From: an uncultured Rivularia sp.
GTDB lineage: Bacteria; Cyanobacteriota; Cyanobacteriia; Cyanobacteriales; Nostocaceae
Assembly: GCA_963665115.1 (NCBI GenBank)
Contig: OY762007.1
Coordinates: forward strand, 3,456,001-3,520,000
Direction of reading: 5' to 3'
Length of the DNA stretch: 64,000 nucleotides
Shown here: positions 32,647-46,402 of the stretch, one piece after another
Layout of the letters: every line of letters begins with the position of its first letter
Position numbering within the stretch: position 1 is the stretch's first letter
Program-made: the position numbers and the translations under genes
Notes under the pieces: generated by a model
The model's database searches: none
What the model saw: only the letters and a program-made list of their open reading frames with translations
What the model was told of the DNA's origin: nothing

Positions 32647-34115
32647 ATGAACAAAAAAATAATTGGCGATCGCTATCAGGTAATTTACCTACTGGGGAAA
32701 AAACCGGGATACAGAACTGTACTTTGTAGCGACACTCAGACTCAACAATTAGTTGTAGTCAAATTTCTGATTTGGGATGATGATTTAGAATGGCAAAATT
32801 TAAGGTTATTTGAAAGAGAAGCGCAGGTTTTACAAAGTATTTCCCATCCTGCAATTCCTCGTTACTTAGACTATTTTGAAGTAAATAGACCAAATATAAA
32901 AGGTTTTGGTTTAGTACAAACTTATATAAAAGCAGCATCTTTAGAAGAACATTTGCAAGCAGGAAGGACTTTTAGCATCGAAGAAGTCAAACAGCTAGCG
33001 GAATCACTTTTAAAAATTTTAATTTATCTGCATTCGCAACAACCGCAGATAATTCATCGAGATATAAAACCGAGCAATATTCTTTTAACAAATCGCTCTG
33101 GAAACAGTATCGGAAACGTTTACTTAGTTGATTTTGGTTCTGTAAAAACCTTAGCCGCTTCTACTGCTGAAACGATTACAGTAGTTGGAACCTATGGCTA
33201 TATGTCACCCGAACACTTTGGTGGTAAAGTTGTTTCTAAATCGGACTTATACAGCTTGGGAGCAACTTTAATTTATCTTGTGACAGGAATGCATCCTGCT
33301 AATTTACCCCAAGAAGATGGGCAGATTCAATTTGAAAAGCTAACTAACTGTCCCCTGAAGATTTTGCTGGTTGGTTAAAGCGGATGGTTGAACCCGTGGG
33401 AGAATTGCGCTTTAGTTCTGCCAAAACCGCATTGCAAAATTTAAAGCAACCTTCAATTAGTGCTAACTATTTAACCAAGAAGTCTATTAAGAATAAGTTA
33501 AATAGTAAAACAAATTTTAAAAAGCCTTTTGGCAGTAGAATTTTTCTTCATAAAAATAAAAATGGACTAGAAGTTGTATTTCCCGCACAAAAAATTAGCA
33601 ACTTAAAAGATGATTTTATCTATTTGGGAATAAAAATTTTAGCTTCTGTAATAATACTGCCTTTCTTATTCCTGACAATACTTATGTTCTTGAGTACTAT
33701 GTTTTATGGATTAGAGTATTCTATGTCTGCTTTTTCGCTTTCAATTGCATCCATATTATTAATGATATGTTTCGGAATTTTTGGAATTTCTATAGCTTTG
33801 ATAGCAAATCTTATAGATGATTTAATAAAAACATCGATCAAGTTATTTCAAAGAGAACGGTTGCAAATTGACAAAAAGAAACTCTGCTTATCTTTTGATT
33901 GGCTATGTTTCAAATCTTGGTTTATTCGTTCTATTTCTTTAACAAAGATTAATAAACTCGAAAAAATACTTATCGCAGATGATAATTCTAAGTGGGGAAT
34001 TGTAGCTAATATTGGAAGAAATCAATATAATTTAGCGAGCAAAACCGATTTAACCGAAGTCGAAATTGATTGGCTTTGTAGCGAGTTGAGCGAGTACTTG
34101 AATTTGCCGTTATAA
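32647..34115 (+). CDS. Paralogous membrane Ser/Thr kinase; frameshift near 33352
   Basis: HRDIKPSN, DFG, GTYGYMSPEH; frame change at TGTCCCCTGAAG gives EDFAGWLKRMVEP, matching QDFCKWLEQMIEP of the neighbour. Confidence 0.85.
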
Positions 34116-35411: not shown

Positions 35412-35575
35412 CTAATATTGTATTTTAAATAGTATTTATAGCTATTAACTGATTCGGTTAATGGCTTTTTTATGCAATTAATTTGAAATTGTATTTAAAA
35501 TAATTTTTCTTAATTGAATACAAGCACAAATTATTTTATACTTAATACCGCGAGAAAGAAGTCATATGTTTTAAG

Positions 35576-36373
35576 ATGCAAAAAAGAAAAATTTTAATTG
35601 TAACCAAAACTTATCCTTCAATTAGCAGGAAATATAAAGAAACAGTTTGTACGGCAGGGGTTTTGCTGAGTGATTCTGAAAAACCGATACAATGGATTCG
35701 TATTTATCCGATTCGTTTTCGCTCTTTAGATTTAGATAAGCGTTATCCTAGATGGTCTATAATTAGTGCTGAGATAGAGAAGAATACAAAGGATTATAGA
35801 CAAGAGAGCTTTAGGATAAATGATTCGTCTATAGAGATTGTCAGAAAAATTAGTACAAATAATAGCTGGGAAGAACGAAAATCATTAGTTCTACCATTAG
35901 AATTTAATTCTGTCAGTGAAATCGCAAATGATGGCAATTCTTTAGGAATCATTAAACCTCAAAGTATTAAAAAGTACTTTTATCGAAACACGAGCCGTGA
36001 ATGGAGTTATAGACAGCAAGCTATTCAAGATCAATTAGATTTATTTGAACCTTCAGTAGAATTAGAAAAAATACCTTATCAATTTTGTTATGATTTTGTT
36101 GCAAAAGATGGTAAGCATCATAAATACTCTATAAATGATTGGGAAATAATGCAATTGTATAGAAATTGTAGAAATAATTCAGATGAAGAAACTCAAGAAG
36201 ACAAAGAAAAAGAGTCTTTAGAGAAAGTAAGACAAAAATTAGAAGATGATTTTTTAAACAACAAAGATTTATACTTTATAGTAGGTAACTTAAAAAATCA
36301 TAAAAACACTTTCATGATTATTGGTTTATTCTATCCCCCGAAATTAGAATTTGAACAGTTAAGTCTTTTTTAA
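35576..36373 (+). CDS. Uncharacterised protein (probable tandem OB-fold family) with two beta-clamp-binding motifs
   Basis: KTYP..ETVCTAG..WIRIYP, DYRQES, SLGIIKP, INDWE motifs; QLDLF at 36032-36046 and terminal QLSLF at 36356-36370. Confidence 0.7.
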   Translation: MQKRKILIVTKTYPSISRKYKETVCTAGVLLSDSEKPIQWIRIYPIRFRSLDLDKRYPRWSIISAEIEKNTKDYRQESFRINDSSIEIVRKISTNNSWEERKSLVLPLEFNSVSEIANDGNSLGIIKPQSIKKYFYRNTSREWSYRQQAIQDQLDLFEPSVELEKIPYQFCYDFVAKDGKHHKYSINDWEIMQLYRNCRNNSDEETQEDKEKESLEKVRQKLEDDFLNNKDLYFIVGNLKNHKNTFMIIGLFYPPKLEFEQLSLF

Positions 36374-36389
36374 TTAATAAAGGTATAAA

Positions 36390-36812
36390 ATGAACAATAC
36401 ACCAACACATACTAGTAACTATATTTTGACCTTTGGATATGGAAATCGTAAAGATTATCAAGAATTTATCGAATATCTTGAGCAATATAAAGTTGCATAT
36501 GTAATTGATGTGAGAATTCGCCCTCGTGCTTGGAGTCGTAAATGGTACGGTGATGGGGTTGAAAAACTTTGTCTTTCAAAAGGAATTAAATATATCTCTA
36601 AATCGGCTTTAGGTAATACATCAGGTAATGCAAAATGGGAACCACCAGATAAGCAAGAAGCTGAAAAATCATTGCAAGAAGTTGCAGAAATTGCTTTTGA
36701 TGGAACTGTTTTATTAATGTGTGCTGAAAAAGATTGGCATCGATGTCATCGTACAGAAGTAGCGAATGAACTTAAAAAGTTAGCGAAACTTCCCGTACAA
36801 CATTTAGTCTAA
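36390..36812 (+). CDS. DUF488 family protein
   Basis: TFGYG, VIDVRxxP, GIKY..LG, LMCAE..CHR signature. Confidence 0.85.
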   Translation: MNNTPTHTSNYILTFGYGNRKDYQEFIEYLEQYKVAYVIDVRIRPRAWSRKWYGDGVEKLCLSKGIKYISKSALGNTSGNAKWEPPDKQEAEKSLQEVAEIAFDGTVLLMCAEKDWHRCHRTEVANELKKLAKLPVQHLV

Positions 36813-39025: not shown

Positions 39026-39727
39026 ATGTCAGAAACTCCTAAATTTGATTTAAGTCGCATCAGGGTTGGTAATGCAATAGGTAAATTTAAAAGAAATGAA
39101 ATAGCCCTTCCAAAAAATAACTTCTCAAATACAGCTAAAGTTGATGAAGTAGCTAGTCAAAAAACTGAGACTCCCGAGATAGTCAAACTTGATGAAGTAG
39201 CTAGTCAAAAAACTGAGACTCCAGAGATGGTTAAAGCTGATGAACTAGCTAGTCAAAAAACTGAGACTCCCGAGATAGTTAAACTTGATGAAGTAGCCAA
39301 TCAGAAAACAAATAATCCAGAGATGGTTAAAGCTGATGAAGTAGCTAATCAGAAAACTGAGGCTCCAGAGATAGTTAAACTTAATGAAGTAGCCAATCAG
39401 AAAACTGAGGCTCCAGAGATAGTTAAACTTGATGAAGTAGCCAATCAAAAAACGACACTTCTTAGCGGAGAGCAAAAAAAACTCAGTGAATCAGCAAAAG
39501 AAATCCAAGCATTACTAGAACCATTACAAACAACTTACCCAACCAATTCTGACTACGAAAAGCAAGTGTTTGTAAATAAATTCAAGGAAGAAATAAGGAA
39601 AAACTATCGCGTTCAAGAAACACTTGTAGCTGGGGGAACTGAGTTAATTAAAATCATCTGTCAGCCCCTAGATATTCCCATTGAAATGGGTAAAAAATGG
39701 TTGGAAACAGCAAAACACTATCGATAA
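39026..39727 (+). CDS. Hypothetical protein with ~7 tandem 16-aa acidic repeats
   Basis: KLDEVASQKTETPEIV-type units (48 bp) at about 39137-39455; C-terminal helical domain LSESAKEIQALLE..TYPT. Confidence 0.75.
   Translation: MSETPKFDLSRIRVGNAIGKFKRNEIALPKNNFSNTAKVDEVASQKTETPEIVKLDEVASQKTETPEMVKADELASQKTETPEIVKLDEVANQKTNNPEMVKADEVANQKTEAPEIVKLNEVANQKTEAPEIVKLDEVANQKTTLLSGEQKKLSESAKEIQALLEPLQTTYPTNSDYEKQVFVNKFKEEIRKNYRVQETLVAGGTELIKIICQPLDIPIEMGKKWLETAKHYR

Positions 39728-45417: not shown

Positions 45418-46402
<985 letters not shown>

Follow-up and report, generated by a model that had tools for sequence, protein, structure and literature searches.

DarT–DarG combines a DNA-modifying toxin with an enzymatic antidote and serves in phage defence, and SocB–SocA of Caulobacter is built around a clamp-binding toxin. 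HMCES/SRAP proteins carry an N-terminal catalytic Cys2 and are clamp-tethered on single-stranded DNA. DUF488 was reportedly placed in the rhodanese-phosphatase superfamily by Burroughs and Aravind in 2023, who are also said to have predicted DNA-end processing for the DUF488 clade. Genes lying inside BREX, DISARM or type I RM loci gave rise to the predicted PDC systems, which the accessible text of their source (Payne et al. 2024, bioRxiv 10.1101/2024.01.29.577857) puts forward for future study with no function given. Our study concerns a pair of genes in a window of 64 000 nucleotides from an uncultured Rivularia sp., and this pair is already catalogued as the PADLOC phage-defence candidate PDC-M19. 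The PDC-M19B profile covers gene 1 at full length (E 8.9e-75, residues 1–263 on profile positions 1–267 of 269), and gene 2 matches the C-terminal DUF488 part only of PDC-M19A (E 9e-13), with PDC-M45B scoring 2e-10. In the literature searched we found no function for the pair, DUF488, DuOB or PDC-M19, no phage-defence test of PDC-M19 and no biochemical data on the pair; the work of Burroughs and Aravind may already cover the clamp motifs or the subfamily. The toxin–antidote asymmetry of the pair, described below, is new with respect to that literature.

The two genes share the + strand and are separated by 16 bp, gene 1 at 35576..36373 (265 aa) and gene 2 at 36390..36812 (140 aa), as the initial annotation had described them. 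It had also called the pair AT-rich, which holds for gene 1 (29 % GC against 38 % in both window and genome), whereas gene 2 is only mildly so (34.5 %, with four neighbours at 34–42 %). The surrounding genes are unrelated to the pair, as had been stated, and encode a GNAT, YbjN and an amidase; with such housekeeping neighbours, the defence-island neighbourhood that had been named for checking was ruled out for the window. A terminator-like hairpin 3' of ybjN (35440..35476, + strand), which is a consensus match only with 1 found against 0.4 expected, would shield the cassette from transcription arriving from upstream, and a promoter scan was at chance level (7 vs 8.6). The nearest named relatives are Rivularia and Calothrix copies at 86–89 % identity, and in the Rivularia-like clade the pair occupies a stable site as a lone insertion among housekeeping genes. 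Elsewhere in the window, a Ser/Thr kinase gene (32647–34115) is present as two ORFs (243 + 243 aa) where the syntenic gene of loci L002–L004 is one ORF of 486–502 aa, likely through a frameshift or assembly error; an aldo-keto reductase-like gene (45418–46329) is seemingly divided between ORFs of 109 and 185 aa; and a 233-aa protein (39026–39727) carries a tandem repeat of ~17 aa (EVANQKTEAPEIVKLNE-like), its length varying among syntenic relatives.

Gene 1 matched no Pfam family at E 0.5, and its family comprises 1826 representatives (clusters at 50 % identity) at E ≤0.001; among the best 150 of these the longest match spans ≤327 aligned residues. The AlphaFold model, built on a 148-sequence alignment, has a pLDDT of 95.8, and its top Foldseek matches were the tandem-OB DNA binders RPA, HIN-200, LEF-3 and telomere-end binding proteins, with a best E of 2e-5 and low TM-scores. 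VIA gave middling scores (Z up to 7.1), mainly across the first OB. Profile comparison by hhalign with 16 cyanobacterial DuOB proteins scored 91.5 % (E 8.7e-7, 117 columns, residues 5–132) in an alignment that pairs C25, R42 and E77, and gene 2, used as a control, scored 0.5 %. Gene 1 lies below the Pfam cut-off of DuOB (PF22557), with no match at E 0.5, and the PF22557 model matched 32/201 cyanobacterial genomes and gave 0 matches in the genome of the pair, in a scan in which no control genome matched either. An Atlas search with gene 1 returned as top matches unnamed clusters or an automatic name of doubtful worth, with a DuOB row at 0.82 that served only as a lead. Gene 1 is a distant relative of DuOB with a homologous first OB domain. 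The initial annotation had proposed an OB-like protein acting on DNA: AlphaFold, Foldseek and hhalign agree on an OB-type fold, and action on DNA is probable.

A set of polar residues in gene 1, which reads C25/R42/D73-x-R75-x-E77/D188-W-E190, was found to be near-invariant among 214 diverse homologues (C25 in 213, R42 and R75 in 212 each, D73 in 209, D188 and E190 in 206 each, E77 in 205). These residues may form the active site, in which Cys25 (codon 35648..35650, + strand), the most conserved polar residue, would be the putative nucleophile. The near-invariance of this Cys/Arg/Asp/Glu set therefore makes gene 1 likely to be an enzyme and not a passive adaptor. Y13 was considered as a tyrosine transesterase residue and ruled out, being Ala in 3/12 distant homologues.

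Gene 2 matches DUF488 (PF04343) at E 2e-16 and 61 bits against a Pfam cut-off of 22, and the DVR and CxE..CHR residues reported for it at the outset are present as D40-V-R42 and C111-A-E113...C119-H-R121. All seven of D40, R42, C111, E113, C119, H120 and R121 are invariant in 121/121 close homologues. With the structure model (pLDDT 88), Foldseek found dual-specificity and RNA phosphatases (RNA triphosphatase), weakly, at a best E of ~5e-3, and VIA found tetrapyrrole-methylase N-domains, DUF442, PTP-fold enzymes and RapZ-C (Z 6.4–10.3), with phosphatases at Z 8–8.4 against 9–10 for the tetrapyrrole methylase N-domains. The canonical PTP/DSP loop of Cys-dependent phosphatases is Cx5R, and this is absent from gene 2, in which C111 to R121 reads Cx9R and the second Cys gives C-H-R. 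The modelled fold matches fit the rhodanese-phosphatase placement reportedly made for DUF488.

Gene 1 contains two exact matches to QL[SD]LF, as had been noted, one internal and one forming its last five residues. QLDLF (residues 153–157; 36032..36046, + strand) lies where the interior of the model has its lowest confidence (block pLDDT 79), and QLSLF (residues 261–265; 36356..36370, + strand) abuts the stop codon; both are putative clamp-binding motifs. The QL[SD]LF-type clamp motif and the PIP-type motif were used as generally known patterns. QL[SD]LF occurs in 12/5293 ORFs of at least 150 aa in the genome, in the last 12 residues of 2 of these and twice in gene 1 only, so the motif pair is beyond chance. 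The other ORF with a terminal match (211 aa) looks like a DNA methyltransferase fragment. Conservation was assessed in 139 homologues of 230–340 aa taken from the best 150 of the 1826 representatives. In this set Q..LF was found in the inner linker of 66/139 (1.3 in shuffles) and in the variable-length tail of 43/139 (1.0 in shuffles), at either site in 91/139 and elsewhere in the core in 1/139, with the loose motif at both sites in only 40/139. The linkers around both sites are free to vary in length and sequence, and conservation above shuffles within such linkers favours the initial annotation in treating these as real clamp motifs.

The inner motif appears, from its pattern, to turn PCNA-box-like in an archaeal clade. 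Of the 86 rows from a search with the copy of Sulfolobus plasmid pSOG2, 51 sequences were used, with 18 near-identical Sulfolobus entries and the 16 weakest set aside; only a few of the rows carry an archaeal name. The inner Q..LF was found in 0/51 and is replaced by an LxxY[LI]-type motif in 47/51 (6.2 in shuffles), against 6/139 in the other set. Tails in this clade include QKTLFDF-type ends, and the strict PIP pattern occurs in 7/51 at each site. The switch is seen in one clade and therefore counts as one event; the Haloquadratum copy retains QAKLF.

Gene linkage across homologues, one of the checks proposed with the initial annotation, was found to be conserved. The sample comprised 61 distinct loci (62 rows with one duplicate; 9 repeats or unrelated loci set aside), searched with a DUF488 profile built from 13 partners within the sample. 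Gene 1 was intact in 47/61 loci, and a full-length DUF488 was the next gene in 46 of these 47. The remaining loci comprised 6 with a broken gene 1 and an intact DUF488, 6 contig-end cuts and 2 partnerless remnants; an intact gene 1 beside a broken DUF488 was found in 0 loci against 6 of the reverse. This 6:0 bias in decay is weak, at about 0.08 by gene length alone and with some of the loci from metagenome assemblies. Two of the four closest syntenic copies (L002:6001-6801 and L004:6001-6798) have internal stops in gene 1 and an intact DUF488. The sole intact gene 1 without a partner was that of Sulfolobus pSOG2, where DUF488 is absent from the whole plasmid, so that the putative toxin stood intact without its putative antitoxin in 1/47 loci.

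The layout of the pair varies. It is tandem downstream in most cyanobacteria, whereas the genes converge in most Proteobacteria and Actinobacteria and in the Gordonia phages; tandem upstream and fused arrangements also occur. DUF488 partners were found fused to XRE-HTH, to ParB, or to a domain weakly like the DarG C-terminal part and SocA/Panacea. This N-terminal domain of long partners gave weak matches to DarG positions ~177–243 in 5/5 (E 2e-4 to 0.16) and to SocA/Panacea in 4/7 (E 0.002–0.08), and a PDB sequence search with that of one long partner returned nothing. Among the archaeal partners are ParB-HTH-DUF488 fusions (L025:1945-2994 and L026:5082-6164), and CTP binding by an archaeal ParB-DUF488 fusion is reported in the accessible part of a 2025 preprint. 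In two Sulfolobales plasmids a PD-(D/E)xK-looking gene without a Pfam or PADLOC match lies directly 3' of the gene 1 homologue (L024:3852-4358 and L025:3870-4361).

Distribution of the pair in cyanobacterial genomes is patchy (11/301 and 30/401). Gene 1 homologues occur in 24 plasmid records, of which 15 were opened, and in 7 Gordonia phage records, adjoining the repressor, of which 1 was opened. In that phage, Nymphadora, gene 42 (L027:5822-6274) is annotated as ‘HipA toxin’ and is actually DUF488 (E 9e-42 to the partner profile). It converges with the gene 1 homologue of this phage, gene 43, which abuts the immunity repressor gene. A solitary gene 1 homologue in the Gordonia phage was thereby ruled out. 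The accessible part of the CarolAnn paper contains nothing on Nymphadora genes 42–43, and IMG/VR scans with two single-protein queries found no relative. Cyanobacterial copies sit mostly among housekeeping genes, transposases or mobile DNA and not in clear defence islands, and a scan of 100 neighbour proteins (91 from cyanobacterial loci) gave few PADLOC matches there, mostly to generic domains. Generally known LexA-box patterns gave no match suited to the host phylum in the sequence 5' of 12 plasmid pairs, with one CTG-N10-CAG in an alphaproteobacterium, and carried little information.

Published transposon screens cover two homologous pairs. In Synechococcus elongatus a 271-aa homologue of gene 1 lies between a lysozyme gene and a 140-aa DUF488 (L072), and the three match Synpcc7942_0756, 0757 and 0758 in length and order; 0757 is 69 % identical to gene 1 and 0758 is 52 % identical to gene 2. 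According to the portion of Adomako 2022 (PMC9239245) consulted, 0757 is non-essential and 0758 is essential; of the 29 prophage genes given a call there, three are scored as essential, namely 0758, 0759 and 0762. The whole prophage and its ‘section 7’, which we infer to span 0758, were deleted (PMC9239245). The strain table there gives single mutants of 0756, 0757, 0759, 0760, 0761 and 0762, with 0758 not listed, and the consulted portion holds no statement that deleting 0758 failed. The same study also deleted 0759 and 0762 despite calling them essential, and such calls can therefore be overcome, although these two genes lie upstream and replacing them could silence a toxin gene further down. 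Two more TA-like pairs are seemingly present in this prophage stretch (L072:6308-10298, 0759–0762): the essential 0759 partners nuclease 0760, not clonable alone, and the SocA-like antitoxin 0762, also essential, is accompanied by a 119-aa downstream ORF. The published 0759/0760 pigmentation phenotype may reflect such TA-like pairing.

In Rhizobium 3841 a convergent pair on pRL8 was mapped to pRL80099 (gene 1 homologue) and pRL80098 (DUF488) by gene order and matching TA-site counts of 11, 20 and 23, with one neighbour at 21 vs 25. In the accessible data of Perry 2016 (PMC5118466), pRL80098 scores as essential on VMM, with an insertion density of 0.18, and as growth-defective on TY, where insertions still occur at 64 % of 11 sites; pRL80099 is neutral (insertion density 0.95), and the pRL80098 phenotype is common to only 48 plasmid genes. 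Because the two genes are convergent, polarity between them cannot explain the split. Rows for pRL80097-99 were absent from the Perry 2014 supplements. As far as the consulted portions go, PMC9239245 and PMC5118466 offer no interpretation of the pair. In two organisms, then, the DUF488 gene could not be lost and gene 1 could, which points to a toxin and an antidote and sets the direction of the relationship, in that gene 1 acts and gene 2 rescues. This pattern, as expected of an antitoxin that is indispensable only while its toxin is present, comes from published screens of homologues and not of the Rivularia copy.

A third screen bears on gene 1. In RB-TnSeq of S. elongatus under RSF1010 vs pANS plasmid selection, the accessible results of PMC10653904 place 0757 second-lowest among 1886 genes (-3.69, t -5.6, standard error 0.66, relative to the control plasmid), beside the prophage repressor 0764 and with no follow-up by the authors; in the other screen of that paper 0757 scored +0.65, which is not significant. 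Loss of 0757 was harmful under RSF1010, so gene 1 can protect the cell during replication stress. The result fits a repair step or a toxin restraining the induced prophage, not addiction or anti-plasmid defence, for which the opposite sign should be expected.

We consider it quite probable that an action of gene 1 on DNA at the clamp is lethal unless the DUF488 enzyme steps in, a core that is shared with the repair pathway discussed below. Within that core we favour, as a tentative reading at slightly less than an even chance, a DarTG-like defensive toxin–antidote pair. Gene 1 is predicted to fold as two DNA-binding OB domains and would likely dock on the sliding clamp by means of both QL[SD]LF motifs, and its Cys/Arg/Asp/Glu site would likely place a block that contains phosphate on the single-stranded DNA of forks or gaps, making gene 1 the presumed toxin. 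The DUF488 protein, a Cys-phosphatase-like enzyme, would likely remove the block. As to the chemistry, our preferred and speculative guess is a cut or adduct that yields a blocked, phosphorylated DNA end, because the antidote fold is phosphatase-like; as to the role, the system might, equally speculatively, keep phages that enter or are induced from replicating once the balance is upset.

Points in favour of a toxin–antidote pair are the essential/dispensable split in S. elongatus and Rhizobium with a deletable prophage, the linkage in 46/47 loci across layouts, the decay of gene 1 alone, the DarG/SocA-like, XRE-HTH and ParB partners and the clamp motifs. Its mobile and patchy spread (30/401 genomes, 24 plasmid and 7 Gordonia phage records) and its standing as a PADLOC embedded-gene candidate count on the same side. 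Against it, caution is due to the low fitness of 0757 mutants under RSF1010, to the deletion of 0759 and 0762, to pSOG2 with its missing DUF488, to the pRL80098 insertions on TY, to the weakness of the 6:0 bias and to the cyanobacterial copies, which sit mainly among housekeeping genes.

The strongest competing explanation, which is rather doubtful in our view, is two-step clamp-coupled DNA repair or fork protection, in which gene 1 would capture or cut a single-stranded DNA lesion, loosely like HMCES/SRAP, and DUF488 would clean the phosphorylated end or free the adduct. It explains conditional essentiality equally well, as DUF488 would be essential because step 1 cannot stay unfinished, and it is the main rival because 0757 loss hurts strongly under plasmid replication stress. 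The clamp motifs, the solitary housekeeping setting, the stable site in the Rivularia-like clade and the DNA-end processing reportedly predicted for the DUF488 clade would also suit it. A repair pathway is, however, at odds with the patchy presence (30/401), the accessory location in prophages and plasmids beside other antitoxin-like genes, the DarG-C/Panacea-like and HTH fusions on the partner, the decay of gene 1 in two of the four closest syntenic copies (L002 and L004) and the lack of a fitting LexA box upstream of the 12 plasmid pairs.

The initial annotation had gene 1 as a non-catalytic adaptor that brings DUF488 to the clamp, in which case the essential calls would be artefacts of small AT-rich genes. 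OB folds with clamp motifs agree with an adaptor, as do the small size of the genes, which offer few places for insertion (11 TA sites), the deletion of two other ‘essential’ prophage genes and the existence of pSOG2 without DUF488. We nonetheless think it improbable, and this part of the annotation is not supported in its stated form, since the polar residues of gene 1 are near-invariant, DUF488 is the gene that cannot be lost, an adaptor predicts no lethality from loss of the enzyme alone, and the same asymmetry recurs in both phyla and both transposon datasets, the immediate Rhizobium neighbours being neutral. Just as improbable is a SocB-like clamp blocker, in which gene 1 would poison replication by filling clamp pockets and DUF488 would neutralize it by binding: two clamp motifs per chain, the SocA/Panacea-like domain on long partners and the SocB–SocA precedent favour it, but both proteins have invariant enzyme-like residues, the partners scored as essential in S. 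elongatus and Rhizobium consist only of DUF488 and have no Panacea-like domain, and few homologues carry the loose motif at both sites (40/139, from the best 150 of 1826).

Should the toxin–antidote reading hold, it would amount to a new toxin fold, antidote chemistry and clamp-tethered DNA reaction common to bacteria and archaea; a repair pathway would still be a new two-enzyme one. Possible, though we lean against it, is an entirely new DNA-targeting toxin–antidote chemistry, in which a clamp-riding dual-OB cysteine enzyme, found in bacteria and archaea with its docking motif swapped to the host clamp, would form an undescribed DNA lesion or covalent adduct at forks, reversed by an antidote of cysteine-phosphatase fold. 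That would give a first function to the DUF488 and DuOB-like families and a prophage- or plasmid-borne restraint on phage replication. DUF488 and DuOB-like proteins are widespread, gene 1 alone accounting for 1826 clusters at 50 % identity, and the pair is directly testable in a model cyanobacterium for which a 0757 mutant and a prophage-free strain exist.

In comparison with described systems, the pair resembles PDC-M19 in that gene 1 matches PDC-M19B at full length and gene 2 matches the DUF488 part of PDC-M19A, although the Rivularia gene 2 is a short, DUF488-only protein that lacks the N-terminal domain found in the 294-position model, and the gene order is the reverse of the long form. 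With DuOB (PF22557)-DUF488/PDC-M45 it has in common a homologous first OB domain, a C-x-A-G...W-I/V-R...E motif and a DUF488 partner; it differs in having one DUF488 and not two, no RecQ, and clamp motifs on gene 1 itself. Like HMCES/SRAP, gene 1 is Cys-centred and predicted to be clamp-tethered and to act on single-stranded DNA, but it differs in fold, in a Cys at position 25 and not at the N-terminus, and in having an obligate partner enzyme. SocB–SocA offers a clamp-binding toxin and a SocA/Panacea-like domain seen in some partners, whereas both partners here look enzymatic and the 140-aa gene 2 is without a SocA-like domain. No ADP-ribosyltransferase, macrodomain or NADAR was detected in the pair with Pfam/NCBIfam at E 0.5. 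The likeness to DarT–DarG, as described in the consulted part of PMC9503650, lies in the way of working, with a toxin that likely acts on single-stranded DNA, a conditionally essential enzyme antidote and a weakly DarG C-terminal-like domain on long partners, set against a dual-OB Cys toxin with clamp motifs and an antidote of Cys-phosphatase-like fold. By this analogy, our best reading is that the pair works like DarTG while standing outside the DarTG family.
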